Below are positions 1 through 59,295 of a stretch of DNA of 64,000 bases, in pieces. Source of the DNA: Squalus acanthias (Eukaryota). The notes beneath the pieces were generated by a model. The model was given only the letters and a program-made list of their open reading frames with translations, ran no database searches and was not told the DNA's origin. The first letter of the stretch is position 1, and every line of letters starts with the position of its first letter. The position numbers and the translations under genes were made by a program. The DNA lies in contig CM059432.1 of assembly GCA_030390025.1 (NCBI GenBank), forward strand, positions 24,120,001 through 24,184,000, in the 5' to 3' direction.

Positions 1-115
1 TTTTCAGCAGTGAGCACAAATTTTGCATGCAGTCTAAAGCATTAGCGCCTGGCACTAATTCTCCAACTTTTCTACTGATACTGCCCATTCCTGGGCTATA
101 ATGAATTTCTAGCCC
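1..115. mobile_element. Right end of a PIF/Harbinger-type element (runs off the window start)
   Basis: Ends GGGCTATAATGAATTTCTAGCCC followed by TAA; same terminus style as the element at 32120-32632. Confidence 0.6.
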
Positions 116-498
116 TAAGGGTACTAGGCATGTTTACATTGTTAAATATTACATCTTAGAGGTGACCTTATTGAGGTAGTTAATATCTTCAGGTGAACAG
201 ATAAACTGGATTCCAGGGTGTTGTTCAATTTTAATATAAGTTCCAAGACAAAGGGACATGGATTTTATATTTTATTCATTCATGTGATGTGGGCATTGCT
301 GGCAAGGCCAGAATTTATTGCCCATTGCTAATTGCCCTTGAGAAGGTGGTAGTGAGCTGTTTTCTTGAACCGCTGCAGTCCATGTGGTGAAGGTACTCCC
401 ATAGTGTTGTTAGGGAGGGAGTTCCAGTATTTTGACCCAGCGACGATGAAGGAAAAGCAATATATTTCCAAGTCAGGATGGTGTGTGACTTGAAAGGA

Positions 499-949
499 CA
501 AAGAAAGAAAGACTTGCATTTATATAGCGCCTTTCACGACCACCGAACGTCTAAAAGCACTTTACAGCCAATGAAGTACTTTTGAAGTGGACTCATGTGG
601 GAAACATGGCAGCCAATTTGTGCACAGCAAGGTCCCACAGTCATCAATGTGATAATAACCAGATAATCTGTTTTTGTTATGTTGGTTGAGGGATAAATAT
701 TGGCCAGATAATTCCGTTACTCTTCTTCAAAATAGTTCCATGGGATCTTTTACATTCACCTGAGAGGGCAGACTGGGCCTCGGTTTAACGTCTCATCCAG
801 AAGACGGCACCTCCGACAGTGCAGCACTCCCTCAGCACTGCACTGGAGTGTCAGCCTAGCTTTGTGTGCTCATAGTTCCTGGAGTGGGAACTGAACGCGC
901 AATCTTCTGACTCAAAGGCTAGTGTGCTACTCACTAAGCCACAGCTGAC
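499..949 (-). mobile_element. tRNA-derived Deu-domain SINE (SacSINE1-like), full length, nested in the LINE
   Basis: tRNA-like head, GTGCTGCACTGTCGGAGGTGCCGTC Deu-type core, (TTTC)n tail; degenerate ACTTG-AGG target duplication. Confidence 0.85.
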
Positions 950-2341
950 ACTTGGAGGGGAAGTTGCAGGTGGTGGTGTTCCCATGCGCCTGCTGCTCTT
1001 GTCTTTCCAGGTGGTAGAGGTCGCGGGTTTGGGAGGTGCTGCTGAAGAAGCCTTGGCGACTAGCTTGTAGTTGGAGCACACTGTAGCCATGGTGTGCCGA
1101 TGGTGGAGGAGTGAATGTTTAAGGTGATGGATGGGGTGGCAATCAAGCAGGCTGTTTTGTCCTGGATGGTGTCGAGCTTCTTGAGTGCTGTTGGAGCTGC
1201 ACTCATGCAGGCAAGTGGAGAGTATTCCATCACACACCTGACTTGTACCTTGTAGATAGTGGGATGGCTTTGGGGAGTCAGGAGGTGAGTCATTGGCCAC
1301 AGAATACACAGCCTCTGACCTGCTCTTGTAGCCACAGTATTGGCACAGTTGGTCCAGCTATGTTTCTGGTCAATGGTGACCATCAGGACGCTGATGGTTG
1401 GGGGATTCGGTGATGGTAACGCCTGGCACTTGTGTGGCGCCAATGTTACTTGCCACTTATCAGCCCAAGCCTGAATGTTTTCCAGGTCTTGCTGCATGCG
1501 GGCACAACCTGCTTCATTATCTGAGGAGTTGCTAATGGAACTGAACACTACTTCTTTTTTCCATGTGTGGACCAAGGTTGTAATGAGGTCTCTAGCCAAG
1601 TGGCCCTGACGGAACCCAAACTGAGCATCGGTGAGCAATTTATTGGTGAATAAGTGTCGCTTGATAGCACTGTCGACAACACCTTCCATCACTTTGCTGA
1701 TGATTGAGAATAGACTGATGGGGCGGTAATTGGCTGGATTGGATTTGTCCTGCTTTTTGTGGACAGAACATACCTGGGCAATTTTCCACATTGTCGGGTA
1801 GATGCCAGTGTTATAGCTGTACTGGAATAGCTTGGCTAGAGCTGTGGCTAGTTATGGAGCACAATTCTTCAGCACGGCGACCGGGATATTGTCGGGGCCC
1901 ACAACCTTTGTTGTATCCAGTGCACTGAGTCATTTCTTGATATCATGTGGTCTGAATTCAGTTGGCTGAAGACTAGATTCTGTGATGGTGGGGACATCGG
2001 GAGGAGGCTGAGATTGATCATCCACTCGTCATTTCTGGTTGAAGATGGTTGTGAACACTTCAGCTTGTCATTTGCACTCACATGCTGGGCTCCACTATTG
2101 TTGCGGATGGGGATGTTCATGGAGCCTCCTCCTCCTGTTAGTTGTCCACCACCATTCACGACTGGAAGTGACAGGACTGCAGAGCTTTGATCCATTGGTT
2201 GCGGAATCGCTTAGCTCTGTCTATAGCATGCTGTTTCCGCTGTGTAGCATGCATGTAATATATATTTTGTAGCTTCCCCAGGTTGGCACCTCTTTTTTAG
2301 GTATGCCTGGTGCTGCTTCTGGCATGCTCTTCTGCATTCCT

Positions 2342-2777
2342 CATAGAAACATAGAAACATAGAATCTAGGAGCAGGAGTAGGCCATTCGGCCCATCGAGC
2401 CTGCTCCGCCATTCAATACGATCATGGCTGATCATCCAAATCCAGCACCCTGTCCCTGCCCCAATCCCCACAGTACTCACATCCCACCCTACCCCCGTAA
2501 CCCCACGCATTTAATTCCCCCTAACATATCCCATCCTATCCCCATAACCCCACATATTTAATCCCCCCTAACACTAAGGGTCAATTTATCATAGCCAAAT
2601 CAACCTAACCTGCACATTTTTGGACTGTGGGAGGAAACCGGAGCACCCGGAGGAAACCCACGCAGACACGGGGAGAATGTGCAAACTCCACACAGACAGT
2701 CACCCGAGGTCAGATTCGAACCCGGGTCTCTGGCGCTGTGAGGCACCAGTGCTAACCACTATGCCACCGTGTTGCCC
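2342..2777 (-). mobile_element. HE1-like V-SINE, full length
   Basis: tRNA head (TGGCATAGTGG...GGTTCGAATC), V-domain GTGTGGAGTTTGCACATTCTCCCCGTGTCTGCGTGGGTTTCCTCCGGGTGCTCCGG, CR1-type tail ending (TTCTATGT)n. Confidence 0.9.
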
Positions 2778-3892
2778 TGGTCCCCTGGCTTAATGGTAAA
2801 GGTAGAGTGAGGGATACGCCGGGCCATGAGGTTACAGTTTGTGGTGGTATACAATTCTGCTGCTGCTGATCTGAATCTATCCCATTTAGCACGGTGGTAG
2901 TGCCACACAGTACGATGGAGAGTGTCCTCAGTGTGAAGACGGGACTTTGTCTCCAAAAGGACTGTGCGGTGGTCACTCCTACCAATCCTGTCGTGGTCAG
3001 ATGCATCTGTGAAAGGTGGATGGTGAGGACGAGGTCGAGTAGGTTTTTTCCCTCGTGTTGGTTCTCTCACCACCTGCCGCAGGCCCAGTCTGCTAGCTAT
3101 GTCCTTCAGGACTCAGCCAGTTTGGTCAGTAGTGGTGCTACCGAGCCGCTTTTAGTGATGGACATTGAAGTCCCTCACCCAGAGTAAATTCTGTACTTTG
3201 CTACCCTCAGTGCTTCTTCCAAGTGGTGTTCAACATGGACGAGTACTGATTCATCAGCTGAAGGAGGGTGGTCGGAGTTTTCTCCTTGCCCATGTTTGAC
3301 TTGATGCCATGAGACTTTATGGGGTCCGAAGTCAATGTTGAGGACTCTTAGGTCCACTCCCTCATGACTGTATTCCACTGTGCTGCCATCACCTCTGGTG
3401 GGTCTGTCCTGCCGGTGGGACAGGACATACCCAGGGATGGTGATGGAGGAGTCTGGGACGTTGGCTGAAAGGTATGATTCTGTGAGTTTGACTAGGAGCT
3501 TGACCAATCTGTGGGCCAGCTCTCTCAATTTTGGCACAAGTCCCCAGATGTTAGTGACAATACTTTGCAGGTTCGCCTGGGCTGGGTGTCATATCTGGTA
3601 CCTAGATCGATGCCAGGTGGTCCATCCGCTTTTATTCTTAGTACTGTACATTTATTTCTAGCGGTTTGGTACAACTGAGTGGCTTGCTAGGCCATTTCAG
3701 AGGCAAATAAGAGTCAACCACAGTACTCTGGGTCTGGAGTCAGACCAGGTAAGGATGGCAGATTTCCTTCCCAAAGGACTTTAGTGAACCAGATGGGTTT
3801 TTAACGACAATCCGGGAGTTTCATGGTCACCATTACTGATACTAGCTTTTTATTCCAGATTTATTTAATTAAATGAATTTAAATTCCATGGT

Positions 3893-3977
3893 GGGATTTG
3901 AACTCATGTCTCCAAATCATTCGCCCAGGCCTTTGAATTACTAGTCCAGTAACATAACCACTAAGCTACCGTACCCC
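3893..3977 (-). promoter_or_regulatory. Pol III type-2 promoter-like A box and B box at the LINE 5' end
   Basis: Minus strand TAGCTTAGTGG (3968-3958) and GAGTTCAAATCCC (3905-3893). Confidence 0.65.
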
Positions 3978-3994
3978 GTAAATGATTCAAAACA

Positions 3995-4585
3995 TTGACC
4001 AGAAACTGAACTGAACTAGCCACATAAATACCATGGCTACTTTGAGCAGGCTGGTTATACTACGGCGAGTGACTCACCTCCTGACTCCCCAAAGGCTCTC
4101 TACCAACTACAAGGCACAAGTCAGGAGTGTGATGCAATACTCTCCACTGGCCTGGATGGCTACAGCTACAACACTCAAGAAGTTCAACACTATCCAGGAC
4201 AAAGCTGTCTGCTTGATCGTCACCCCATCCACTGCCTTAAACATTCACTCCCTGCACCATCAGCATACCGTGGCTGCAATGTGTACTATCGACAGACCCA
4301 AACCTGTAACCTCCACCACCTAGAAGGACAAGAGCAGCAGTCAAGAGAGCACCATCACCTTCAGGTTCCCCTTCAAGTTACACACCAAACTGACTTGGAC
4401 ATATATTGCTGATCCTTCACTGTCGCTGGGTCAAAATCCTGGAACTCCCTACCTAACAGCATTGTAGGAGCACCTTCACCACACGGACTGCAGTGGTTCA
4501 AGAAGACGGCCCACCACCAGCTGAAGTCATCTAAGTTTGGGCAATAAATGCTGGCCTTGCCAGCGATGTCCACAGTAAAAAAAAA
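3995..4585 (+). mobile_element. 5'-truncated CR1-Zenon-like LINE 3' fragment
   Basis: ORF 4033-4323 YKAQVRSVMQYSPLAWM; same 3' UTR; A-tail at about 4577-4585. Confidence 0.85.
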
Positions 4586-14807: not shown

Positions 14808-15532
14808 GGCCCAAAAATTAGTGAGTGAGCCTTCGTGCGAGGGTAAGGCCTTCCCGCGATCTCTCACTGTGCACTGGCTTTTTCAGTCCGAGCTCGCACG
14901 AACTTGATGTTCTGGACAGCTGCTGTGCAGTGCTTTCGTATCCCACAGGCGTAGTTAATTCGTGCGAGCTGTGGGATCACGTGACTCAGTTAGAGCCAAT
15001 GGCAGCACACCATCTTTCATTCATAGCTAGCTATGAATACTATACCCCCCCCAAAAGAACAGCTAAACCTCAATTAATTTTTTTTAAAAACCAACACATT
15101 AATAAAATAAGTATAGTTAAATAAATTAACCATTTTAAACAAAAAATTAAATTTTTGAAAAAATGTAAAATCTTTTAAAAAGTTATAAAAATAAACTTAC
15201 CTGTCTTTAAAGTCTCTAAAAAAGATATACCTGTTAAAAAAAATTCAAAATAATACTTAATTAAGTACTTACCTTGTTAAAAGAGGGTCTTACACCTCCT
15301 TTCTTTATGTCTAAAATCTTCCATGCTTACCTGCGCGTCCAAAGCACTAAGTGCACTGCGTGCGCGCAGCCTGTAGCACGCACACGGTTCACCTAGGAAC
15401 CGCCCCCTTTTGAAATCACCAAGTGCCGGTTTTCAGCGCATGCGCAGTGCATGCAGAAAACCGGCAATTGGAGACAGAATACGCGAGAGTACACAGTGCG
15501 TACTCTCGCGTAGCGGCACTAATTTTTGGGCC
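14808..15532. mobile_element. Hairpin-rich MITE, copy 1 (Harbinger-like)
   Basis: Perfect 16-bp TIR GGCCCAAAAATTAGTG; TSD AAT/AAT; homologous to 53016-53758 and 55234-55975. Confidence 0.9.
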
Positions 15533-15662
15533 AATCTCTCTGTCTTCTTTTGTAGCGAAGTTTATGTTACTCTATACTTTCCTGCACCAGAACTCTGCCA
15601 TTCTCTTTTTAACGAAACACTTGGCACAGGACTTATTTTATCGGGCAATAGTCTAGTCCTTA

Positions 15663-21620: not shown

Positions 21621-22212
21621 GACGGCTTGTCCGTCATGCAGTACTGGATGCGTAGAAATTTCTTCCAATTAAATATTGGGAAGACCGAAACCATTGGGGG
21701 TGATTTTCTGACGTCCGAGGAGGCAGGTTTGGAGGCGGGAAAATCGGAAACAATGAGTGCGGGTTCGGAACCTGCCTCCAACCCGCCTCTGTGGGATTTT
21801 GCCGGTGCCAGTTTTGCAGCGCGGGAAACGGTCCTGCCTCCTGCTGCCCATAGCACTTGTTAAGAGGATTAAATGCTCGTTAAGGGCCTCTCTAAGCCTA
21901 TTTTGAGAGGCCCTCGTGATTTTTCGACCATTTTGGCGTGTTCCACGACCCTCCTAAACCACGCCAGCTAAACCTGTCGGGTTGACTTGTGGGTGGTCTC
22001 CTCACAGCTGCAGGTCCACCATTAAATTGTTTATTTCATCAGGGATTAGTTGCAGGTGGCAGAACTTTGCTTTAAAAGGTCTTTGAGCACTTTTAGAAGG
22101 CCTTCCGAAGTCGGAGGTGCTGCAGCTTGTATCTATCAACGTGGGACCTCCTTGGAAGACCCTCTCCCCGCTTGCAATGAGCGCTTCCCCAACGGAGGCA
22201 CCTGCAAGCAGC

Positions 22213-23487
22213 ATGGGAACCATTCGTTTTCTTTCTCCATGGACCTCAGATTCAGATGAGGAGCATCCACGGCAGCAGCAGAACCAGGCAGCTCAGGAGC
22301 AACAGCAGCAGGAGCCCCAACCTCCTGCTCAGCCACCTGATGCTGCACATGGCAGAAGGCGCCAGCACATCGAGGCACCTCGCCGCAGGAGATACCCCCC
22401 ACAGAGGGTTTACAGACAGAGGATGAGCTACCTCAACAAGAGTGAGCAGCAGTGCCAAAGGAGGCTGGGACTTTCGCAAGAGGTTGTCCGAGAGATCTGC
22501 GGACTGCTGCAGCAAGACCTGGTGCCCAGAGGAGCGGGTGGACAACCCTTACCAGTGGCTGTCAAAGTCACCACCGCACTCAACTTCTTTGCCTCAGGCT
22601 CCTTCCAGGGATCATCAGCAGACATCAGCGGCATCTCCCAGTCGGCCGCCCACAGTTGCATCATGCAGGTTACCGATGCCCTTTTTGCTAAGGCACACAA
22701 TTACATCCAGTTTTCAAGGGATCAAGCAAGTATAACCGCCCGTTCAGTTGGCTTTGCAAATATGGCAGGCATGCCAATGGTGCAGGGCGTCATAGACTGC
22801 ACACATGTGGCCCTTAGGGCACCCCATCATAACCCAGCTATCTTTCTCAACCGAAAGGGCTTCCACTCCTCAACGTACAGCTGGTGTGTAACCACAAGAA
22901 GGAGTTCTTGCATGTTTGCGCCAAGTTCTGTGGTAGTTGCCATGACTCTTTCATCCTGCGGCACTCTAATGTTCCTCCACTCTTCAATCCGCCAAACCAA
23001 CTTAACGGATGGCTCCTTGGTGACAAAGGCTACCCCCTGAACAAGCGGCTAATGACGCCGATCAGGAGGCCAGCTAACGAGGCTGAAGAGCGCTACAATG
23101 CCAGCCGCACTTCGACCAGGTCCATCATCGAGCAAACCATTGGGTTGTTCAAGATGCGCTTCCATTGCCTTGACCGATCAGGTGGAGCCCTGCAGTATAC
23201 ACCATACAGGGTCTCCAGAATGGTCGTGGTCTGCTGTGCACTGCACAACATCGCACAGCGTCGTGGCTTGCAGCTTCCTGAAGAGCAAGTGGCTCAGTTC
23301 CAGCCCTCCTCAGATGAGGATGAGGAGGAGGATGATCTGGAGAGGAGGAGGAGGAGCAGGAGGAGGAGGAGGAGGAGCAAGAGGAGGAGGAGGAGCAGGA
23401 GGAGGTCAGAGCGCCGGTGTATCAACCAGCAGCAGCATGGCTGCTCGGGATGCAAGGGATGAACTTATCATGGTCAGATTTGCATAG
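22213..23487 (+). pseudogene. Harbinger (HARBI1-like) DDE transposase, about two frameshifts
   Basis: [38 protein letters not shown]...KMRF, CCALHN; frameshifts near 22870 and in the GAG repeat near 23340; ends ELIMVRFA*. Confidence 0.9.
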
Positions 23488-25906: not shown

Positions 25907-27012
25907 TGTATATTTACTCAGACGCCGTTCTTTTTCTTGCAGCCAAGCTATCTCATAATAGGAGACAGCAGCAACGGACGTGTGGAGGGCGGCCTCAGCT
26001 GCAACCCCTCAGCGATCTTGAGGCGCGCATCCACAGGATTGTGGCAAGCCGGGTGATCGGTCCCGTCGCCACTGGAGACGCCGACCCCGTTCTGGACAGC
26101 AATGGTAAGGCCATCACCTTTTTGTCCTCTGTCCTTCCACTTGTCCCTCACAACACCAGCCTTTGACACTTTCAATCCAACTTACTAAATCGCTGCACTC
26201 ATTCCTCCCTTACTGCCCCCCTGTCCTCACGCTAAAGCCACTCTTGTACCTCCCTGCTTTCAGATGGTGATTCACCAGCTGAGGAGACGGGCCCTCAAGC
26301 TGCCAGTGGGAGTGAAGCTGCAGGTGAGGAGGAAGATGAAGGCGGAGCATCAGCGCCACCCTCTCCCAAGGAAGCCCAAGCCCACACTGGGAACACGCTT
26401 TCCCTGGAGGGGAGCAGGGGGGAAGGGTCTGATGAGGGTGAAGCTCCAGGACCCAGCGGGCTGCAGCAACGCCATGGGGGTAGGGAAGCTCGGGGGCCTT
26501 CTCCCCGGAGGGAGAGTATGCCAGCGAGTCCTACTGCACTGGACGCAGTGAAGGAGCGGCTCATCGCTGAAATGAACACGCAGGTGGCGGACATGCACAC
26601 TGTGCAGTGGGAAGGGTGCCCGAATGCATTGAATCACTGGCAAGGAGTGTGGAGCACTTCGCTGTAGCACAGGCGGATGCCACGCAAATGTTTAGTGCTG
26701 CAATTCAGTCAATGGCTGCCATGACCCCATCTCTGACTGCTCTTATGCAGACTCAGATTGAGGCCACGCGAGCACTGACTGCTGCCATCCTCGCTGGTTC
26801 GGACACATTTTCCCGGGGCTCTCCCTCTCACAATGTGCTCCAGCAGATTCCTCCGGATGCTGAAGTGCTGCCCTGTGGGAGTGCCAGTGTGTTGGTCGAG
26901 CAGGGAGTTGCTGTCCTCTCTCAAGATGCGGAGATGCGGGTGTTGGACTGGGGTGGACAAAAATGAGAAGTCGCACAACACCAGGTTATAGTCCAACAGT
27001 TTTATTTCAAAT

Positions 27013-27048
27013 TACGAGCTTTCGGAGCTGCTGCCCCTTCGTCAGGTA
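27013..27048 (-). ncRNA. Minimal type I hammerhead ribozyme motif (PLE pLTR)
   Basis: UAC-CUGACGA-A-GGGGC(AGCA)GCUCC-GAAA-GC-UC-GUA. Confidence 0.7.
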
Positions 27049-27308
27049 GAGGTACATTGAGGGAATCTGTTACACAGTATATATACACAGAGAGCAATTT
27101 GTCTGCAGAGATAAAATCTGTTAGGAAGGCATTACATCAAAGACACATCAGAGTACAGCTAAGACAATGAGGTGGGTCACAGAGGGTCCAACGTGTCAAA
27201 TGTTGTCGTCTGCAGTTGAGCTTTTAACTTTTTTTTTTCTGTTTATTTTTTTGGTTGTTTTTTTTTGTGTTTTTTTTTTAAACTGGAAAGACAGACAACG
27301 ATGTCGAG

Positions 27309-28250
27309 TCACGTTCTGTAGCGTGACATGAACCCAAGATCCCGGTTGAGGCCGTCCTCATGGGTGCGGAACTTGGCTATCAGTTTCTGCTCGATGATTT
27401 TGCGTTGTCGTGTGTCTCGAAGGCCGCCTTGGAGAACGCTAACCCGCAGATCCGAGGCTGAATGTCCTTGACTGCTGAAGTGTTCCCCGACTGGGAGGTA
27501 ACAATCCTGCCTGGTGATTGTTGTGCGGTGTCCATTCATACGCTGTCTCAGTGTTTGCATGGTCTCGCCGATGTACCATGCTCCGGGGCATCCTTTCCTG
27601 CAATGTATGAGGTAGACATCGTTGGCCGAGTCACATGAGTATGTACCATGTACCTGGTGGGTAGTGTCCTCACGTGTGATGATGGTATCTGTGTTGATGA
27701 TCTGGCATGTCTTGCAGAGGTTGCCGTGGCAGGGTTGTGTGGTGTCGTGGTCGCTGTTCTCCTGACAGCTGGGTAATTTGCTGCGAACGATGGTACTTTT
27801 GAGGTTAGGCGGCTGCTTGAAGGCGAGTAGTGGAGGCGTGGGGATGGACTTAGCAAGGTGTTCATCGTCATCGATGACATGTTGAAGGCTGCGAAGAACA
27901 TGGCGTAGTTTCTCCGCTCCGGGGAAGTACTGGACGACGTAGGGTACTCTGTTGGTTGTGTCCCGTGTTCGCCTTCTGAGGAGGTCTATGCGGTTTTTCG
28001 CTGTGGCCCGTCGGAACTGTCGATCGACGAGTCGAGCGTCATATCCCATTCTTACGAGAGCGTCTTTCAGCGTCCGTAGGTGTCCATCGTGTTCCTCCTC
28101 GTCTGAGCAGATCCTGTGTATTCGCAGGGCTTGTCCATAGGGGATGGCTTCTTTAACGTGGTTAGGGTGGAAGCTGGAGAAGTGGAGCATCGTGAGGTTG
28201 TCCGTGGGCTTGCGGTAGAGTGAAGTGCTGAGGTGTCCATCTTTGATGGA
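27309..28250 (-). CDS. PLE RT thumb, Cys linker and GIY-YIG endonuclease (5'-truncated, uninterrupted frame)
   Basis: LYRKPTD, IPYGQALRIHRICS, CHGNLCKTC, VYLIHC...WYIGET, RMNGHR, EQKLI, GLNRD. The Cys linker suggests the Neptune group. Confidence 0.9.
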   Translation of the reverse strand, partial: SIKDGHLSTSLYRKPTDNLTMLHFSSFHPNHVKEAIPYGQALRIHRICSDEEEHDGHLRTLKDALVRMGYDARLVDRQFRRATAKNRIDLLRRRTRDTTNRVPYVVQYFPGAEKLRHVLRSLQHVIDDDEHLAKSIPTPPLLAFKQPPNLKSTIVRSKLPSCQENSDHDTTQPCHGNLCKTCQIINTDTIITREDTTHQVHGTYSCDSANDVYLIHCRKGCPGAWYIGETMQTLRQRMNGHRTTITRQDCYLPVGEHFSSQGHSASDLRVSVLQGGLRDTRQRKIIEQKLIAKFRTHEDGLNRDLGFMSRYRT

Positions 28251-28769
28251 GAGACCATGCAGACACTGAGACAACGTATGAACGGACACCACGCAACAAT
28301 CGCCAGGCAGGATTGTTACCTCCCAGTCGGGGAACACTTCAGCAGTCAAGGACATTCAGCCTCAGATCTGCGGGTTAGCGTTCTCCAAGGCGGCCTTCGA
28401 GACACATGACAACGCAAAATTATCGAGCAAAAACTGATAGCCAAGTTCCGCACCCATGAGGATGGCCTCAATAGGGATCTCGGGTTCATGTCACGCTACA
28501 GAACGTGACTCGACATCGTTGTCTGTCTTTCCAGTTTTAAAAAATACACAAAAAAAAAACAACCAAAAAAAAATAAAAAACAACAAAAAGTTAAAAGCTC
28601 AACTGCAGACGACAACATTTGACATGTTGGACCCCCTGTGACCCACCTCATTGTCTTAGCTGTACTCTGATGTGTCTTTGATGTAATGCCTTCCTAACAG
28701 ATTGTATCTCTGCAGACAAATTGCTCTCTGTGTATATATACTGTGTAATAGATTCCCTCAATGTACCTC

Positions 28770-28805
28770 TACCTGACGAAGGGGCAGCAGCTCCGAAAGC
28801 TCGTA
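28770..28805 (+). ncRNA. Minimal type I hammerhead ribozyme motif (inverted pLTR copy)
   Basis: CUGACGA 28773-79; helix II 28781-94; GAAA 28795-98; palindromic AGCU; predicted cleavage after C28802; helix I UAC/GUA. Confidence 0.7.
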
Positions 28806-29472
28806 ATTTTAAATAAAACTGTTGGACTATAACCTGGTGTTGTGCGACTTCTCATTTTTGTCTCTCTCAAGATGACAGCATTCCTGCTGCCACCACTGTC
28901 ACTTCTCCACTGCACTTGCCACCGCCTGTAGGACAGACTGCTGCCGCCCATGCGGAGTTGGTGCAGTCTGCAGCCTGGTCCTCCAGGCCCAGAGCTGGTC
29001 GAGGCCGTCCTTCAAGGGCATCTGCAGTCTCAGGTTCTGACAATCAGCAGCCTTCCACCAGCCTTGCTGCAGCCACTGGGGCCCCATTACGGAGGAGCAG
29101 TAGGGTGGGAAGGGGGGAAGTGCGCAAGGGAAGGAGATCACCCTCGAAGGGCAAAAAGTAGGAGGTGTGACAAAATGCTGGTCATTTTTTTATTAAAGGC
29201 TGAGGTTCGTGGTCAAACTTTTGTTTAGTGTTTTGGACATTATCTCCAGGTTGTGAGAACCAGTTATGTTAATGACTGTTTTTTTGTGTTTCTTTCTATT
29301 AGTTTATCATGAGGAAATGACACACACAGAGTTTGTAAAATAAATAAGTTTTTGTATTCAAAATGTACATGTTTGGTCTTTGGAATCATTGCTGCCTTGG
29401 CCGGCTTAGGGGTTGCGGGTTGGTTTCATTCATGTTGTTCTCAATGTGAGAAGCCATTTCCTCGGCAGGGGC

Positions 29473-30584
29473 CTAGAAGCGGCTTGCTATCAGCCGTTGA
29501 CGGATGGCCCTTCCAGTTTCTACATTGTGGGCCTCCCTCCCGCCTTGGTGCTGCTGATGATCATCCTCCTCCTCTTCCTCCTCCTCTTCCTCCTCCTCCT
29601 CTGGTGGTGCTCCAAGACCTGGTGGCATTGGCTGGGTCCTGAGGATTGCCAGGTTATGCAGCATGCAGCACACAACTACAAAGTGGGAAACTCACTCAGG
29701 CAGCGGAACCGTTGCTTGAGCACGCTGATTGTGTGCTCAACGATGTTCCTGGTAGCTTGATGGCTCTCGTTGTACCGCAGCTCAGCAGGGGTGTTGGGCG
29801 TACGGAGCGGTGTCATCAGCCAGGTGCTCAGTGGATATCCCTTGTCCCCGAGAAGCCAACCAACTGGCTGATGCGGTGCCTGGAAAAGTTCTGCCACAGT
29901 AGTCTGGTGCAGGATGAATGCATCATGGCAGCTGCCAGGATAGTGGGCATTGACAGCGAGTATCAGCTGTCTGTGGTCACAGACCAACTGAACGTTTAAG
30001 GAATGGAACCCCTTTCTGTTGCGGAAATCCTCGGCATTCTCATGCAGAGCACGCAAAGCCACATGCGTGCAGTCAATGGTGCCCTGCACCATGGGGAAGC
30101 CCGCTATCCTATCAAAGCCCATTGCGCGTTCTTGCTGCTTGTCTGGAGTCATGGGGAAAGAGATGTACTCTCGTCTCCTTTTAAAGAGGGCATTTGTGAC
30201 CTGACAGATGCAGCAATGCACCGCGAACTAGGAGATATTGGCTGATTGAAATGAGCCAGTGGCATAAAAGTTCAGAGCCACTGTGATCTTCCCTGCCACC
30301 AACAGAGACGTCCTGGACCTCAGTTGAGGCTGCAGATCTGGCTGCAGCAGGTGGCAGAGCTCAGTGACTACCTGCTTGCTGAAGCGCAGCCTTCGCAAAC
30401 ACTGCTCCTCAAACATATTAATATATGTGAATTGTTGGCGATATACCATGGGAGGGTAAGGTCTCCTGTACAGAGGCCTGTTGGCCCTCCTCCGTCTGGC
30501 CATGATTGCCACTCTCTCTTTGCGTCTCTGTGTCCTCCGATTCTGGTGGCGCAGGACGATGCCCCCAATCAGTGCAGCCCCCAC
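29473..30584 (-). pseudogene. Harbinger (HARBI1-like) DDE transposase, frameshifted
   Basis: ALNFYATGSFQ, TIDCTH, NRKGFHSLNVQLVCD, YPGSCHD, GDKGY, IVEHTI..LKQRFRCL, CCMLHN; breaks near 30225 and 29690; start codon is GTG here but ATG in the derived MITE. Confidence 0.92.
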
Positions 30585-32119
30585 AGTCTCTTGGCAATCA
30601 AAGTTATGAAGGTCAAAAACCAAAGTACCTGCAAAGTTATGATCAGTAGCCAAAACTACCTCACACAGCGTTGACTCAATGCAGAAGTCTCTCTTTCTCT
30701 CTCTCCGAATCTCTCTCTCTCTCTCTCAGAATGAGTGGAGCAAAAATGTCTACCACAGAGAAAGACAGGAAGAGCCCCCCTTTAAATAGCGCTCCCCCCA
30801 GCCCCACAGCGACTGGGGAGCGTTCCAGTCTTCTGGTCGTTGGTTGCTCCAGGCGGAAAGGATGGGGCCGCCACTCAATTTCCGCTCCGGGGCACCACAA
30901 GGGCGTTGCACCCTCGTATGACGTCAAGATCTGCGTGCGCAGGAGATCGCGGCGGTAAAGTTTATCGCCACCGCAAAATGTCTAGTTAATTTTGCGAGCA
31001 GTGCAAACATCACTGCGCCTGGGCGCTAGTTGCTTTGCGCCCCATTAGCGCCCTCTTAAGGCGCTAACAGGAGGCGTAACCAACTGAATTTTTCCCCCAT
31101 ACTCTTCATATCAAGTATGATGCCTGAAGTGTGGGGACAAAATATGTCCTTGCCAAAACAGTCTATATGTATGTTTCTATCTATATACATAAATGAATAA
31201 ATTCTATACTCCAAAGATTTCTCCATTTTGAAGTTGGGACCAACAATTTTTTAAAGCATCTCTGTCCGAAAACATTTATAAAGACTCTTTTGATTCAGCC
31301 AATTGGGAGAGAGAGAAATGAAGTTTGCCCCAAGTACATCATTAGAGGGGCAGGTCAAATTTCTGATGTGTTCTCAATACTTACCAAAAAAACCCCACAA
31401 AGTGCCCAATATCAGCAGCTCAGGTACACGTATACTCCACAAAGAGTTATGTCATCAGATTGCACTCTGAGGCTTAAATTTCTCAACATTTTTGTCAACC
31501 TTTTCTAAATTGACTGATGTTACCTATAAGCTTGTGAAATGCATTGTCCTGACACTAGCTCACCCCCTGGCTGGTAGTGAGTTTCCAACACCTGATGCTA
31601 TCTGACATACCAGAGCTTGTGAGGCGTTCCAGTGCGGCAACAAATAGCTTAAAACATGATTCAAGAACTTTCAGTTTGAATGAGACTCCAATGTTAGAAA
31701 GGAAGTATGTAGGTCTATGTAGTGCAGTGATTAGAACATTGTGCTTTAATACCTTTGGGATCCGTAGTCAAGACCAGCCCAGGCAGATAGGATTGAAGTT
31801 TCTTTTCCCTGATGACTGTAAGTGATACATTGAATTTATTACCTTGGCTGTGCCTGTGCTGCTGGCAAAAGGGGTTTAGCTATTACGTACATTCTTGGTC
31901 CCTGAATTACTTGGTGGTCCTGCTGCTTGGGATCGCTATCCTTGTCTGGTGCCAGTCGTACTGCCTGCTTTTAACTCAGTTTCTAATGAATCAACAGAAC
32001 AAAAACTGCCTATAATTCTACACTATAAAGAAATAATGTACTCAGATAACACGCTGTCATTATACATGCTGAGTGTCGTTGCTTCATGTAGACATTGGTG
32101 TTTTGGAGTTAAAGTCCAT

Positions 32120-40006: not shown

Positions 40007-40820
40007 ATTTTTTTTATTTTTTTTATTCATTTATGGGATGTGGGCATTGCTGGCAATGCCAGCATTTATTGCCCATCCCTAGTTGCCCTTGAGAAGGTGG
40101 TGGTGAGCCGCCTTCTTGAACTGCTGCAGTCCGTGTGGTGAAGGTACTCCCACAGTGCTGTTAGGTAAGGAGTTCCAGGATTTTGACCCAGTGACGATGA
40201 AGGATTGGCGATATACGCCTAAGTCAGGATGGTGTGTGACTTGGAGGGGAACTTGGAGGTGGTGGTGTTCACATGTGCCTGCTGCCCTTGTCCTTCTAGG
40301 TGGTAGAGGTCGCGGGTTTGGGAGGTGCTGCCGAAGAAGCCTCGACGAGTTGCTACAGTGCATCTTGTAGATGGTACACACTGCAGCCACGGTACGTCGG
40401 TGGTGGAGGGAGTGAATGTTTAAGGTGGTGGATGGGGTGTCAATCAAGCGGGCTGCTTTGTCGTGGATGGTGTCGAGCTTCTTGAGTGTTGTTGGAGCTG
40501 CACTCATCCAGGCAAGTGGAGAGTATTCCATCACACTCCTTACTTGTGCCTTGTAGATGGTGGAAAGACTTTGGGGAGTCAGGAGGTGAGACACTCGCCA
40601 CAGAATACCTAGCCTCTGACCTGCTCTTGTTGCCACAGTATTTATGTATCTGGTCCATTTAAGTTTCTGGTTAATGGTGACCCCCAGGTTGTTGATAGTG
40701 GGGGTTTCGACGATGGTAATGCCATTGAATGTCAAGGGGAGGTGGTTAGACTCTCGCTTGTTGGAGATAGTCATTGCCTGGCACTTCTGTGATGCGAATG
40801 TTACCTGTCACTTATCAGCC
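40007..40820 (-). mobile_element. CR1-Zenon-like LINE 3' fragment with intact frame
   Basis: ORF 40079-40774 open to HHHLLKGN*; A-rich tail near 40007-40026. Confidence 0.9.
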
Positions 40821-41924
40821 CGTTATGTCTCACCATTCACTGCAACTCATTAAGCCACTTCCAAGGCTGCACACAAATCTGTCCAAGAATGCAAAGTGTT
40901 GAAAATAAAGGTTTCAATGTTTGACACTGCATTAACAGACACTTTAAATGAACCTTGGCTAAAACAACCAAGTGCCTACCTTTGTGTGTTGTTAGTTGGT
41001 ATCCTTGCAGTAAGATGAGGGTATGTGTGAGGGGTGGCTAGTGAGATAGGGAATTGATAATGTAGATAGAGAGGGATGGGTGGAGGTGCAAGGTAAGTTG
41101 GTGTGAGTAAGGATGTGCAGGAGTAGAGTAGGGAAGACAGAGTGATGGGGATGTGATGAGTGGCACAGCAGGATGAGGTTGAGTGTGGCTTTGTAGTAAT
41201 GTTTTGTGATCTACTGAGATCATTGAAAGGTTTGCGTCACTGCAGCCTGGTCCTCCTGATGACATCCCTGCTTGTGTCCTCCTGTGGAATGTGTAACCAG
41301 GCTGTGTTGATCTCCTAGGGAGGTCTCTTCCGCCCATTGGAAGGGAAGAGAACCTTCCTGCATGCTATGACTCCCTCCATAAGCATATGGAGGGAGTCAT
41401 GGGGGAGCCTGGGTGCAGCCGTGTTTGTCAGTGTTTGCAGCACCTCAATGTTGTAAAACACTGACAGCACAAATGCCAAACTAAATTTGGACATGGCCCC
41501 CTTAAGGAAACTGGCTTATGGCACGTCATGACGTCATCAGACCTGCTTCCTTCAACTGGTCGGGAAACTCGCTGGGCGGGCTTAACAAGCCCAATCAATG
41601 GAAAGTCATTTTGGAGGCCAGGTTTGAGTCAGCAGCGGGGCCGAGACCTGCCACCGACATCACTCGCCGAGATCAGCAAAATCTCAGCCCACGTGTCAGT
41701 ATCAAGTACTCCCACACTGGGTATAGTATAGTTAAAGCTCATTTCCTCCCTCCCAATAATGTGCTTCAGTCCTAACCAAGGAAAAGCATCCCCACTTTCC
41801 CAATTGACATTTTTTTCCCACAAGCCATCTGTGTTGCAGTTCTGAGTAATATTACCAATGTAGCGATTTCTGCTAAATTAGGGGCCGTCTTGTTCTGTGG
41901 ACATTCTTCAGATTCAGACTGTAG

Positions 41925-47005: not shown

Positions 47006-47584
47006 TTAAAGGACTGCTGCACATCTCAAAAGGACTAGTGGGCTGGAGGCTGACTAAATAAGACTTGAAGACCTCCTAGAACTGTCATCTTCACAGAGGA
47101 GAGCTAAGAGGTTTTATTGAAAGAGATGGTCCTAAGGAAAGTGTCTGGTTTTGAAGTGAGGAAAAAGTAGAAGCAGTGTACAGCAAGTATTACAAAAGAT
47201 GGCCAATTTTGTGATTATTGTCACCTCTGCACATTGCTCAGGAAGAATAATGGATGCCCACTCAAAGCACCAAGCACTCAGCCTACAATATGCTATGATA
47301 TTTGCAATGCAGACTAAAATGCTTTGTCCCCATGTTTTATTTAAACCTAAAAAATGCTGTCACTGAAACTACACCTCCAACTCGATGGTTGCCAAAGAAA
47401 TAGGCCCCTTTTCACTCACAGTTTTAGCATGTTTTCTCATTTCCACATACTGGCTCCGATATCTACTTGTTCTCTACAGCCTCAATTTTAACTGTGTGTC
47501 AGTTTTTAGCGGGTGACCGGTAGTTAGAAACTCACCCGCTGCTCCAAAGATGAGGCCTTGCGTATTTTAACATCCAGGCCTGCT

Positions 47585-47722
47585 CAGTCCTAGATAGTGT
47601 TGAGCTTCTTGAGTGTTGTTGCAGCTGTACCCATCCAGGTAAGTGGAGAGTATTCCATCGCAATCTTGACTTGTGTCTTGTGTGTGACAGAGAGGTTTTA
47701 GGGAGTCAGGAGATGAGCCACT
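47585..47722 (-). mobile_element. CR1-Zenon-like LINE fragment
   Basis: Matches 40465-40600. Confidence 0.75.
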
Positions 47723-48633
47723 CTACGGGCATTGTGCATTGCTGGGAAGGGACCGCTCCCCAAGGGCTGCATCTTGGAATTGCGGAGGTAGTATTGTGTT
47801 CTAGGTGAAATAATAATGAAGTCAATACAGTGACATAGGAGTTAAAGATATATTAGATAATACCATATACCTTCAAGCTACTGCATGGTATACAGTGTTG
47901 CCAAAAATAAATCAGCAGTGAATTTTCTGCCTATACAATAAATATTACAATAGTCTTATGATTACAAAATCACTTCGTGGCCCTTTTTCCTACATAGTAC
48001 AAAACAATTCTGCTGTACGTATCGCTCTTCTGCTTGTGATTCTTGTGAATATTAGCCATCATGACTAATGGCTATTAAAGGAAGTGCCGATGAGTATTAT
48101 ATGTAATGTCCATGCTGAGAGAACTGCTACTGATAGAGACAATTAATTCTTTCAATTAATCAGTCAATTTACCATCCTGAAGCGAAGTGAGAGTCAACAC
48201 CCTGCTAGCTGGCACCAGAACATCTTTATAAAACACTCCAGCCATCAATGTTTTTGATTAATTACAGCAGACCATCTCAGGAAGCTGCAGCTATATTCAA
48301 TGGTATTTTCCTGTAGTGTGGTTAGACGGGACTAAAATAAAGCTACTAAATAATAGCTGATCATGGTCAACTCGGACTGTGATACCTTCGTTCCTCCATT
48401 GACTGCTGATTCATGCTATCCTGCGCCATGTAGTTAGTAAAGCAATTTTAGATATACAGGGAAAAACAGGACATGCTGGACAGCTGAAATAAAAAAAAGA
48501 ATAGTCTGGAATCTGAAATGAAAATAGAACATGTCTCTCCGAAATGTTTCACACACAATTTGTTTGAAGTGCAGTCGTTATTGTTATGTGGGTGAACAAA
48601 GAGTGTTATGGGACGCTCATCAGAATGGATGCA

Positions 48634-49123: not shown

Positions 49124-50250
49124 AAATAACAACAGAAAATGCTGGAAATACTCAGCAGGCCAGGCAGCATCCATGGAGAGAGAAACAGAGTTAACGTTTC
49201 AGGTCTGGGACCCTTCATCAGAACTGGAAAAAGCTAGAGATGTAACAGATATTAAGCAGGTGCAGAGACAGGGGGGGCGTAGAGGGATTGGACGTCCATA
49301 GTGAAAAGTTTTTACGGTTGGGGCCAGGAAACTGGAAACTGTTAAAGTGATGGAGGGCGTCGGAAGAGTCGCGAATGTAAGTGGGAAGAGACTGGACAAG
49401 GGGAGAAAAAATAGAGTCGAGATAGGAAGAGATAAGTTCCTCCATTCCCCACCAGGACGACCTGAGGGCGCTCCGCTTCTTCCTTGAACAGAGTCCCAAC
49501 CAGTCCCCATCCACCACCACTCTCCTCCGCCTGGCTGAACTTGTTCTCACATTGAACAACTTTTCCTCTGACTCCACTCACTTCCTCCAAATTAAAGGTG
49601 TTGCTATGGGAACCTGCATGGGCCCTAGCTATGCCTGTCTTTTCATGGGATATGTGGAACATTCTTTGTTCCAGTCCTACTCAGGTCCCCTCCCTCACCT
49701 CTTTTTCCGGTAAATCGATGACTGTATCGGTGCCGTTTCCTGCTCTCGCCCTGAACTAGATAAGTTCATTCACTTTACTTCCAATTTCCACCCTTCCCTC
49801 ACCTTCACATGGTCCATCTCCGACTCTTCTCTTCCCTTCCTTGACTTCTCCGTCTCCATTTCTGGTGATCGGCTTTCGACAAACATCCACTACAAGCCCA
49901 CTGACTCCCACAGCTACCTGGACTACACTTCCTCCCACCCCGCTTCCTGTAAGGACTCTATTCCATTCTCTCAGTTTCTCCGTCTCCGCCGCATCTGTTC
50001 TGATGATGCCACCTTCCATACCAGTGCTTCCGACATGTCTTCCTTTTTCCTCAACTGAGGATTCCCCTCTACTGTGGTTGACACGGCCCTTGACTGTGTC
50101 CGTTCCATTTCCCGCACTTCTGCTCTCACCCCTTCCCCTCCCTCCCAGAACCACGATAGGGTTCCCCTTGTCCTCACCTTTCATCCCACCAGCCTCCACA
50201 TTCAACGGATCATCCTCCGCCATTTCCGCCACCTCCAACGTGATCCCACC
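49124..50250 (+). mobile_element. Penelope-like element family 2: inverted pLTR, inverted RT piece and forward RT domain
   Basis: Plus strand from about 49441: SIPHQD...QIKGVAMGTCMGPSYACLFM...FR*IDD...PFLD...HYKPTD; minus strand 49440-49278: SYLDSIFSPLVQSLPTYIRDS...FTMDVQSLY. Confidence 0.9.
49189..49225 (-). ncRNA. Minimal hammerhead ribozyme motif (PLE family 2)
   Basis: AGUU-CUGAUGA-A-GGGUC(CCA)GACCU-GAAA-CG-UU-AACU. Confidence 0.65.
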
Positions 50251-50550
50251 ACCTCCCGTTAATTGTTTAATTGTCCACCACCATTCACGACTGGATGTGG
50301 CAGTACTGCAGAGCTTTGATCTGATCCGCTGATTGTGAGATCGCTTAGCTCTGTTTATATCATGCTGCTTCTGCTTTTTAGCATGCACGTCGACCTGTGT
50401 TGCAGCTTTCCCAGGTTGGTACTGCATTTTTAGGTACACCTGGTGCTGCTCCTAGCATGCTCTTGTGCCCTCCTTATTAAACCAGGGTTGGTCCCCTGGC
50501 TTGATGACAATGGTGGAGTGAGGGATATGCCGGCCCATGAGGTTACAGAT
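50251..50550 (-). mobile_element. CR1-Zenon-like LINE internal fragment
   Basis: KRSHNQRIRSKLCSTATSSREWWWTIKQLTGGGG. Confidence 0.85.
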
Positions 50551-51261
50551 TGGCAACCAAAGGTTTCCTTGAAAGTTGCAGCATTGGACCCGAACTGTAT
50601 CAACATCAGCAAGCAACACTTGTATGTAAGAACAAGCCCAGGAAAGTTGTATATGTTACAAAACTCAGCCCATACTGTTGGCAGGTTTATTCAGTACACC
50701 CATAATCCAACAGGCTCTAAAATTGACTCGCCCATTCTACACACATTAATGGTATTAGTATTTGATTTCAATGCATTTAAATTGACTATTTTAAAGATTT
50801 AACAGTCATGATTCAATTTTTAATTTGCATTTTAAATAGGATTTATTGGAGTTAAACTATGGTCCGCCTCTAGCGTATGTACACTGCACTGAAAGACCTT
50901 GATATCTCACTTTTCTAATCCTGATTTTACAATGCGGTGTGCAATTATTAGGATGTCACAGTTGTGGAAATTGAACTTTTTTTTTCTTATTAAATATATC
51001 AAAGACTCACGTTCTGGAATAAGACAGCCACGTGTTCATGTTGAGCAGAATGTACCTTCAGGGAAAGGTTATCCGTCTCTCCCTCGCTCATACGAAAGAA
51101 CTCCAGCTTTCAAGTTCGATGAAATAAGCACAAACATATTGCAATTGTCACAAAGCTACTTCTATGGTAATAGTTGATCTGCAATGTAGATTCCTAATGC
51201 AGGCACACTGTCACTGATGGTTTCACTGGAGGGAATTACTATTCTAGCTCAAAAATTGAAA

Positions 51262-56143: not shown

Positions 56144-59100
56144 CATGGTCACCATTATTGATACTAGCTTTTTATTCCAGAATTATTTAATTAACTGAAG
56201 CTAGTATCAGTAATGGTGACCATGAAACTATCGGATTGTCGTGAAAACCCATCTGGTTCACTAATGTCCTTTAGGGAAGGAAATCTGCCGTCCTTCCTCT
56301 GGCCTGGCCTATATGTGACTCCAGACCCACAGCAATGTGGTTGACTCTTATCTGCCCTCTGAAATGGCCTAACAAGCCACTCAGTTGTAACAAACCACCA
56401 CGAAACACAATATTAAGAATAAAACCGGACGGACCACCCGGCATCGAACTTGGCACCGGCTACGGACATGGCAATGGCACACCCCAGCCCATTCGACCCT
56501 GCAAAGTTCTCCTCACCAACATCTGGGGACTTGTGCCAAAATTGGGAGAGCTGTCCCACAGACTAGTCAAGCAACAGCCTGAAATACTCATACTCACAGA
56601 ACCATACCTATCAGCCAATGTCCCAAACTCCTCCATCACCATCCCTGGGTATGTGCTGTCTCACCGGCCAGACAGACCCACCAGGGGTGGTGGCACAGTG
56701 GTATACAGTCGGGAAGGAGTGACCCTGGGAGTCCTCAACATTGACTCTGGACCCCATGAAGTCTCATGGCTTCAGGTCAAGCATGGGTAAGGAAACCTCC
56801 TGCTGATTACCATGTACCGCCCTCCCTCAGCTGATGAACCAGTAGTCCTCCATGTTGAACACCACTTGGAAGAAGCACTGAGAGTAGCAAGGGCACAGAA
56901 TGTACTCTGGGTGGGGGACTTCAATGTCCATCACCAAGAGTAGCTCGGTAGCACCACTGCTGGCCGAGTCCTGAAGGACATAGCTGCCAGTCTAGGCCTG
57001 TGACAGGTGATGAGAGAACCAACACGAGAGAAAAACCTACTTGACCTCGTCCTGTTGCAGATGCATCTGTCCATGACAGTATTGGTAGCAGTGACCACCG
57101 CAAAGTCATTGTGGAGACAAAGTCCCATCTTCACACTGAGGATATCCTCCATCGTGTTGTGTGGCACTACCACCATGCTAAATGGGATAGATTCAGAACA
57201 GATGAAGCAGCTCAAAACTGGGCATCCATGAGGTGCTGTGGGGCAGCAGCAGAATTGTATTTCACCACAATCTGTAACCTCATGGCCTGGCATATCACTC
57301 ACTCTACCATTACCACCAAGCCAGGGGACCAATCCTGGTTCAATAAGGAGTGTAGAAGAGCATGCCGGGAGCAGCACCAGGTGTACCTAAAAATAAGTTG
57401 CCAACCTGGGCAAGCTGCAACAAAGGACCACATGCTTGCTAAAAAGCAGAAGCAGCATGCCATAGACAGGGTTAAGCGATCCCACAATCAACAAATCAGA
57501 TCAAAGCTCTGCAGTCCTGCCACATCCAGTCGTGAATGGTGGTGGACCATTAAACAACTAAAGGGAGGAGGAGGCTCCATGAATATCCCCATCCTCAATG
57601 ATGGTGGAGCCCAGCACATGAGTGCAAAAGACAAGGCTGAAGTGTTTGCAACCATCTTCAGCCAGAAGTGCCGAGTGGATGATCCCTAACGGCCTCCTCC
57701 TGAGGCCCCCACCACCACAGAAGCCAATCTTCAGCCAATTCGATTCACTCCACGTGATATCAAGAAACGGCTGAGTGCACTGGATACAGCAAAGGCTATG
57801 GGCCCTGACAACATCCTGTCGTGCTGAAGACTTTTGCTCCAAAACTAGCCGCGCCTCTAGCCAAGCTGTTCCAGTACAGCTACAACACTGGCATCTATCT
57901 GACAATGTGGAAAACTGCCCAGATATGTCCTGTCCACAAAAAGCAGGACAAATCCAATCCGGCCAATTACTGCCCCATCGGTCTACTCTCAACCATCAGC
58001 AAAGTGAAGATTGACTGTAGCCTGATGGGGCAGTAAGTAGCTATCAAGCGGCACTTACTCACCAATAACCTGCTCACTGATGACCAGTTTGGGTTCCGCC
58101 AGGACCACTCTGCTCCAGACCTCATTACAGCCTTGGTCCAAACCTGAACAAATGTGATGAATTCCAGAGGTGAGGTGAGAGTGACTGCCCTTGACATCAA
58201 GGCAGCATTTGATTGAGTGTGGCATCAAGGAGCCCTAGTAAAACTGAAGTTGGGGGGAAAACTCCCCACTGGCTGGAGTCAAACCTAGGACATCGCTGCA
58301 GGAGTTCCTCAGGGCAGTGTCCTAGGCCCAACCATCATCAGCTGCTTAGCAATGAACTTCCCTACAACATAAGGTCAGAAATGGGGATGTTTGCTGATGA
58401 CTGCACAGTGTTCAGCGCCATTGACAACTCCTCAGATAATGAAGCAGTCCATGCCTGCATGCAACAAGAACTGGATGACGTTCAGGCTTTGGCTGAAATG
58501 TGGCAGGTAACATTCGCGCCACACAAGTGCCAGGCAATGACTATCTCTAACAAGTGAGAGTCTAACCACCGCCCATTGACATTCAACAGCATTACCATCG
58601 CCGAATCCCCCACCATCAACATCCTGGGGGTCACCATTGACCAGAAACTTAACTGGACCAGCCACATAAATACTGTGGCAACAAGAGCAGGTCATGGCTA
58701 GGTATTCTGCATCGAGTGTCTCACCTCCTGACTCCCCAAAGCCTTTCCACCATCTACAAGACCCGAGTCAGAAGTGTGATGGAATACTCTCCACTTGCCT
58801 GGATGAGTGCAGCTCCAACAGCACTCAAGAAGCTCAACACCATCCAGGGCACAGCAGCCCACTTGATTGGCACCCCATCCACCACCTTAAACATTCACTC
58901 CCTTCACCACCGGCGTACCATGGCTGCAGTGTGTACCATCTACAAGATGCACTGCAGCAACTCGCCAAGGCTTCTCTGGCAGCACCTCCCAAAAGACCTC
59001 TTCCACCTAGAAGGACAAGGGCAGCAGGTGCATGGGAACACCGCCACCTCCAAGTTCCCCTCCAAGTCACACACCATCCTGACTTGGAAATATATCACCG

Positions 59101-59295
59101 TTCCTTTGTCATCGCTGGGTCAAAATCCTGGAACTCCCTCCCTAACTGCACTGTGGTTATACCTTCACCACACAGACTGCAGAGGTTTCCAGAAGGTGGC
59201 TCACCACCACCTTCTCAAGGGCATTTAGGGATGGGTAATAAATGCTGGTCTTGCCAGCGACGCCCACATCCCATAAAAATGAATAGAAAAAAAAA
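56144..59295 (+). mobile_element. CR1-Zenon-like LINE, near full length, with short 5' inversion
   Basis: LTNIWGL, ILTEPYL, VGDFNVHH, SSDH, ALDIKAAFD, FADDCT, VMEYSPLAW, HHHLLKGI*; A-tail; 5' UTR matches 3660-3870. Confidence 0.9.

Follow-up and report, generated by a model that had tools for sequence, protein, structure and literature searches.

Long interspersed nuclear elements (LINEs) are, in the textbook division, transcribed by RNA polymerase II (Pol II) and protein-coding, and short interspersed nuclear elements (SINEs) use RNA polymerase III (Pol III) for transcription and are non-coding. Can one element be a LINE by its protein and a SINE by its promoter? This question is raised by a 64,000-nt stretch of Squalus acanthias DNA (assembly GCA_030390025.1, contig CM059432.1, positions 24,120,001 to 24,184,000; hereafter the window), in which a decayed LINE copy runs on the minus strand from 3976 (its approximate 5' end) to 270 and opens with a tRNA-like head. 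A sequence-only reading of the window had proposed an autonomous LINE/SINE hybrid, whose RNA could be a Pol III read-through transcript needing cap-independent translation. Our analysis confirmed the underlying observation, a tRNA-headed, T-poor, AUG-less LINE, as real and family-wide. The interpretation as a whole was partly supported, the sequence-level predictions that were checked having held.

On sequence grounds, the membership of this 3.3-kb element with one open reading frame (ORF) in Zenon, a family of the CR1 group, is established. Indeed, the suggested Zenon-like identity was borne out by two window motifs that recur in the Zenon rows of a published supplement; that paper (Stuart et al., 2026; PMC13343379) defines Zenon as ending in a poly-A tail and having no ORF1. 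Here, the element begins at the head and about 330 nt are followed by the single long frame, A-rich ends were found at 90 of 147 3' ends, and 92 tails could be parsed as a T-run followed by an A-run. The endonuclease and the reverse transcriptase (RT) share one ORF, as illustrated by an RVT_1 match in the window and by PF03372/PF14529 and PF00078 matches in full-length relatives; the 171-aa endonuclease fragment of the window alone had no Pfam endonuclease match. The family covers 5.7% (81 chains) of a 1.06-Mb genome sample composed of five blindly chosen 200-kb stretches and the window. Zenon itself is already catalogued, and the first 400 nt of the six elasmobranch rows compared (SquAca_Zenon-1 and -2, CarCar, RhiTyp, ScyCan and HypSab_Zenon-1) open by eye with a tRNA-like head, those of SquAca_Zenon-1 almost matching our family majority. 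The head is thus present in published sequences but unremarked, since the main text of that paper has no hit for “tRNA” or “promoter” (PMC13343379). Literature listings, Repbase and Dfam lying outside the search, gave no account of a Pol III autonomous LINE or of such a head. The stretch was partly present in 20 of the 24 public runs listed (17 with half or more of its words; seven organisms). Shares of 0.07-0.10 were seen for three metatranscriptome runs. Contigs of runs X15 and X17, which are RNA by guess only and in which start, strand and polymerase are not visible, covered all 30 bins, and run X23 gave nothing.

In the window copy, the head occupies 3893..3976 on the minus strand with a sharp 5' boundary, and the A and B boxes noticed there were confirmed at 3968-3958 and 3905-3893. 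Two anticodon-arm-like stem-loops lie between the boxes, the first with the loop CT-AGT-AA. The sequence-only reading had assigned the untranslated region (UTR) behind the head to the element and had seen the boxes in this copy only; a search blind to the head showed that the head belongs to the element as well. With the UTR/ORF junction as query, 3,359 candidates were obtained, 40 scored and 30 fetched, giving 28 non-self, non-duplicate loci; in 11 of these the alignment ended at most 20 nt short of the head start, and in 17 it stopped at scattered sites between nt 36 and 269 of the family sequence. In 36 long and 43 short copies that bear the head, the majority base share was 0.64-0.97 over nt 1-8 and at most 0.49 upstream of nt 1, directly before which conservation is at background; hence there is no longer UTR and no ORF1. 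The 54-nt head pattern had 424 exact matches in the genome, against none for a reversed control. In an empty-site test, 15 of 20 fetched copies had both ends and five had repeat matches in both flanks; in four of these five testable copies the flanks were contiguous in other copies of the repeat concerned, and these four are head-to-tail insertions of one unit. Contigs of two public runs also joined both flanks of copy L075, skipping exactly its 3,272 nt. The inserting unit has the head as its 5' end, and this holds family-wide. A check on whether full-length copies begin at the head with target-site duplications had been suggested. They do begin there, and long duplications were mostly absent from the 53 copies inspected, with 9-10 nt in three and at least 5 nt in 21 (against 17.5% of mismatched pairs), i.e., short duplications at most.

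Both boxes are retained by eye in the six published shark and ray consensuses, although the remaining head varies and the B box of one consensus is one letter short (PMC13343379). Folding gave the head no greater stability than shuffled sequences. Older heads (L311-L340) have a single anticodon arm, whose loop CT-AGC-AA is that of the hairpin located before the ORF, and younger heads have two arms. Behind the head, a conserved UTR body (3701..3892, minus strand) is shared with short SINE-like derivatives. MetaSINE, UCON3 or DeuSINE identity of this body was rejected, because the sequence after the head showed no likeness by eye to the Meta, UCON3 and Deu alignments (PMC7245038 supplement). A likeness to the salmon AvaIII SINE was also considered, as a possibility only.

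As would be required of a Pol III unit, the family majority (17 copies, 3.3 kb, 19.9% T) has no run of four or more T (T4) on the sense strand, and only seven T3, against 17 A4, 11 C4 and 8 G4. Mononucleotide shuffles predict 4.0 T4 (P 0.015) and 20.5 T3, none of 2,000 shuffles having as few T3. The T3 deficit persisted against dinucleotide shuffles (11.8 expected, P 0.034) and, within the ORF, against synonymous codon permutation (5 versus 11.6, P 0.004). Since the observed/expected ratio in the ORF is 0.72 for TT and 0.93 for AA, the avoidance is specific to the sense strand. The sequence-only reading had counted just three T4 runs in the window copies, at about 453, 2955 and 57832; these were confirmed, and further ones exist at 553 and 729 (within a nested SINE) and at 56169 (within an inverted piece). 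Its remark that the neighbouring CR1 is richer in T4 proved right: a CR1 control, for which 7 of 20 loci were long enough, has five T4 in 2,077 nt, a TT ratio of 1.05 and 25% T, and the density per copy is 4.1 T4/kb in CR1 versus 0.27 in Zenon. Among relatives from metagenome loci, 54 of 80 were examined; their TT ratios range from 0.86 to 1.37, T4 occurs in 53 of 54, most have a methionine ahead of the endonuclease, and none matches the A/B pattern upstream of the ORF. Low T content does not account for the depletion: T-run avoidance exceeds composition and is unseen in the CR1 control and in 53 of the 54 relatives. ARAGORN found no tRNA in 43 relatives, which is uninformative because it misses the shark head too. 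The lowest TT ratio (0.86) belongs to relative L292, whose 5' end is missing and which may reflect chance or a second T-avoiding lineage.

A terminator built into the 3' end was also considered and rejected. T4 occurred in the first 22 nt at 33 of 147 ends and in the next flank window at 22 of 147; the 92 parsed tails comprise 56 with a single T and 19 with at least four T, with no link to age (P 0.71). T4A3 is common genome-wide (396 occurrences versus 178 of A3T4), and none of these 3' end patterns was used as evidence.

Where, then, could translation start? A single frame of 971 codons extends from nt 330 to 3242. The sequence-only reading had about 400 nt of UTR running straight into the endonuclease; the absence of ORF1 stood, and the distances were corrected to a frame opening at about 330 nt and an endonuclease at about 435 nt from the 5' end. 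It was also right that no conserved ATG precedes the ORF, the first methionine of the frame being codon 285. Between the opening and the endonuclease lies an AUG-less basic N-terminal leader (3556..3658, minus strand), in which recurrent length variants preserve the frame. Its length was measurable in 24 of 36 long copies, 18 of which share one frame, including all recurrent variants. Among lineages A-C, there are 19 leader codon differences (non-independent pairs), of which 10 are synonymous when read in the ORF frame, 5 in the +1 frame and none in the +2 frame. Upstream, the in-frame triplet nt 309-311 is TAG in 64 of 103 copies, the triplet nt 327-329 is TAA in 29 of 64 lineage B and 5 of 7 lineage D copies, and no near-cognate start codon is common to all four lineages (103 copies).

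This TAG, an in-frame stop, lies within a hairpin (nt 298-323; 3675..3700 on the minus strand) that all lineages and all six published rows retain; its 7-nt loop, CU-AGC-AA, is anticodon-like. At one stem position, lineages C and D have G-C, the stingray row has A-U and the others have a mismatch (PMC13343379). Twelve nucleotides behind the hairpin comes a conserved in-frame GCT followed by A (GCTA, 3659..3662, minus strand), a candidate codon mimic or first codon, past which sequences diverge in frame. Because the linker upstream of GCT is 1 nt shorter in the whale-shark row (PMC13343379), the frame is not kept upstream of it. One frame serves endonuclease and RT, held from GCT onward. These frame patterns make it likely that translation begins without AUG, at GCT or just behind it. 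As AGC:GCT pairing is possible in lineages A-C and in the six published rows, a pseudoknot between loop and GCT is a candidate, the main alternative being re-initiation after a two-codon upstream ORF (uORF) that ends at the loop TAG. A conserved AUG uORF at nt 274 combined with a frameshift was rejected, because older lineages lack it or have it closed and the whale-shark row has it shifted; inspection by eye showed neither a slippery heptamer nor a 2A motif (PMC3894237).

Short derivatives of the element are numerous. Among 29 loci picked by their head, 20 consist of head and UTR joined to the last 65-175 nt, and nine run on into the ORF; among head-bearing copies, 43 are SINE-sized versus 36 long. 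Their 5' and 3' ends are joined by internal deletion at 41 short-type junctions, 33 of them distinct (23 clusters at ±3 nt). Left ends span 261-443 with a median of 338, and right ends span 3125-3234 with a median of 3197. The left breakpoints cluster just behind the hairpin, which many short forms retain. Extra letters were present at 9 of the 41 junctions, and microhomology was rejected as an explanation, its mean of 0.67 being at chance level (null 0.70). Both young lineages are represented among the leader variants of short copies. The tree of 5' modules, which is weakly resolved (45 of 76 branches left open), gave 21 label changes, at least four of them forced, versus 26 in shuffles, and a single origin of the short forms was recovered in 0 of 200 bootstrap trees. 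Deletions above 150 nt numbered 15 in 54.8 kb of Zenon (seven SINE-type), compared with 2 in CR1 (33.9 kb, with a shorter reference). The element appears to have shed many separate short, SINE-like forms by internal deletion, presumably through a template jump during insertion; serial deletion in a few SINE masters is a possible alternative. Some of these forms probably amplified as SINEs, since certain junctions recur, one of them four times, and each of two older subfamilies has typical junctions of its own. One SINE subfamily that amplifies itself has a degraded hairpin.

Taken together, we consider it probable that this Zenon LINE is transcribed end to end by Pol III and translated from a cap- and AUG-independent start near the GCT behind the anticodon-like hairpin. 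Pol III transcription would be the best explanation of A and B boxes kept together with strand-specific T-run avoidance. TFIIIC would bind the boxes, Pol III would read through 3.3 kb and stop on meeting the first flanking T run, and ribosomes would be recruited by the UTR. We propose that 330 nt at the 5' end (promoter) together with 65-140 nt at the 3' end (RT recognition) suffice for mobility, so that internal deletions made during insertion would yield ready-made SINEs, some of which, as many distinct and few recurrent junctions suggest, would then have amplified alone. A fuller version is tentative and, in our judgment, rather doubtful: the AUG-less start of a 3.3-kb protein-coding Pol III transcript would use a tRNA-mimicking pseudoknot like that of the dicistrovirus intergenic region (IGR) internal ribosome entry site (IRES), and the family would be a standing SINE factory, template jumps from the 3' end to the 5' module having founded dozens or more independent SINE lineages since before the shark/ray split.

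Several observations weigh against a Pol III transcript with an unusual start. Against the dinucleotide and codon nulls, the absence of T4 taken alone is not significant (P 0.11-0.16), with 1.7 expected after dinucleotide shuffling (P 0.15) and 1.9 after synonymous codon permutation (P 0.11). L292 (metagenome contig, 1-3018) has no T4 where 5.6 are expected, one is present in the lineage C majority, a thin one built from 16 copies over 1,699 nt, with a single locus duplicated in five of the copies, and an older SINE subfamily shows T4 next to an A run, near nt 113, in 9 of 19 parsed copies. The head of L075 scored 22.6 bits with the Rfam tRNA model (E 0.027), below the gathering score of 29, and ARAGORN found no tRNA in the head. 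Pol III processivity has been argued to limit such elements to about 1.3 kb (Kojima, 2024; PMC10886601). At the start site, 11 of 103 copies have an ATG at nt 303 that is open into the ORF, and the comparison of lineages C and D gives no support to the ORF frame (2 of 16 synonymous). The pseudoknot stays only a candidate because old lineage D has ACT with an unchanged AGC loop, so that the pairing is mismatched there and no compensatory change is seen, because the loop and triplet form 3-4 pairs at most, because an Rfam scan gave no IRES match, and because the hairpin, although present in the minimum free energy fold, is no more stable than shuffles (z -0.6). Lineage C counts are inflated, since one truncated copy recurs five times within a megabase (L345, L347, L349, L350 and L363; 63.8-64.7 Mb), apparently by segmental duplication.

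The head could instead be a captured SINE lying within, or serving as, a Pol II internal promoter, with a capped RNA, an ORF reached by re-initiation after the tiny uORF or from lineage-specific near-cognate codons, and T scarcity as a by-product of codon use or composition. This is unlikely in our view, although LINEs are generally transcribed by Pol II (PMC10886601), T4 absence alone lacks significance, and suitable codons exist: ATG-GCC-TAG (lineages A and B) or GTG-GCC-TAG (C and D) lies just upstream in frame, TTG occupies 324-326 in 93 of 103 copies, and ACG occupies 339-341 in 26 of 64 lineage B copies. However, the TTG is followed by the TAA of lineages B and D noted above and falls outside the frame in the whale-shark consensus, and such a transcript leaves unexplained both the depletion of TT and T3 on the sense strand only, beyond all 54 relatives, and the boxes kept across sharks and rays. 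Quite improbable is a Pol III transcript translated in an ordinary way, through unusual capping or from rare master copies with an open ATG303, the hairpin serving reverse transcription or ribonucleoprotein assembly. The 11 copies with an open ATG303, the broken AGC:GCT pairing of lineage D, and the retention of the hairpin by many short forms, with breakpoints just behind it, all fit such a scheme; the TAG stop kept in the six published elasmobranch consensuses and in the lineage A-C majorities does not, nor does the degraded hairpin of the self-amplifying SINE subfamily, which needs no translation. Finally, an abundant SINE and a headless LINE might have been joined repeatedly by chance, through template switching or adjacency, into dead-end chimeras. 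SINE-sized copies do outnumber long ones among head-bearing copies and older SINE subfamilies do exist, but every long copy, the four lineages and six published consensuses share one and the same UTR-to-ORF junction, no other 5' end occurs, and variable junctions belong to the short forms; chance joining has only a very remote probability and is already largely refuted.

If Pol III transcription of the LINE is true, a family making up about 5.7% of our sample and found in five elasmobranch species in the published survey breaks the LINE/SINE polymerase split. It would provide a naturally occurring Pol III mRNA of several kilobases that is translated from a cap-independent start. It would also offer a directly visible way in which SINEs are born, gaining head, body and tail in one step, which bears on the origin of SINE bodies.

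The window copy consists of four pieces with 81-91% identity to the family majority; two SINEs are nested within it, about 310 nt are deleted near 1550, and frameshifts occur. Downstream of the leader on the minus strand, the AP-endonuclease region forms a first, frameshifted part of the ORF (2778..3555), followed by a nested tRNA-headed SINE (approximately 2352..2777), which we take to be V-SINE/HE1-like. The RT region (950..2351; Pfam RVT_1, E 7e-11) contains the 310-nt deletion. A nested SINE of Deu type by eye, on the same strand (500..949), carries the T4 runs at 553 and 729 and is presumably SacSINE1-like. The ORF end, a 3' UTR of about 60 nt with a stem-loop, and a short A tail lie at 270..492. 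A second copy had been placed at 56144-59295 with the same UTR. The UTR was recovered and the start corrected: the copy spans 56198..59291 on the plus strand, is 5'-truncated at family nt 138 and is 91% identical to the family majority, and 56144..56199 is an inverted UTR piece (family nt 109-164, minus strand) at its 5' end. Deletions are combined with internal inversions in the long copies L087, L093, L099 and L105. Further Zenon fragments, 79-95% identical to the majority, lie at 3993-4574 (+), 40018-40821 (-), 47577-47723 (-) and 50246-50552 (-).

Elsewhere in the window, two ORFs at 22087-23462 (+) and 29676-30725 (-) are transposase-like in appearance, presumably of Harbinger/PIF type. 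An element at 26956-28862, which we take to be Penelope-like, has a GIY-YIG-like C-terminus, 615-nt direct repeats and 11 T4 runs over 1.9 kb. Repeats some 750 nt long lie at 14832-15535, 53012-53761 and 55230-55976; the latter two (53012-53759 versus 55230-55976) are 97% alike and bracket about 1.5 kb, possibly as a pair of long terminal repeats.

TRNA-derived SINEs (SINE2) join an A/B-box head, a conserved body and a LINE 3' tail. The short copies described here have exactly this build and are short and non-coding; the long form, with its 971-codon frame, is not. Unlike in tRNA-derived SINEs, head and body are here the 5' end of the protein-coding partner itself. Among LINEs, the published elasmobranch Zenon elements share the length of about 3.3 kb, the absence of ORF1, the endonuclease and RT and the A tail, whereas the hagfish and coelacanth rows begin, by eye, without such a head (PMC13343379). 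In bivalves, Zenon is a known partner of SINEs (PMC11481361), and further background is provided by PMC5499810 and PMC4824008. Bipartite non-autonomous LINEs, listed only for the RTE, Ingi, Vingi and R2 clades (Kojima, 2018; PMC5786205), resemble the short forms in that both ends are kept and the middle is deleted. However, their SINEs acquire a separate head, whereas here an element of the CR1 group supplies its own, at dozens of junctions; RTE-1_DAn and related elements are LINEs with a tRNA-like sequence, but of another clade (PMC5786205). For translation, the nearest likeness is the type 6 (dicistrovirus IGR) IRES, which starts at a non-AUG codon, pairs the loop of its pseudoknot I (PKI) with the triplet before the first codon, and tolerates in-frame stops upstream (10.1101/2024.04.17.590008). 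The hairpin and GCT resemble this PKI arrangement, with no AUG and a frame set at a triplet behind a hairpin. They differ from it by having 3-4 pairs, no compensatory change, one mismatched lineage, candidates only for PKII and PKIII and no Rfam match.

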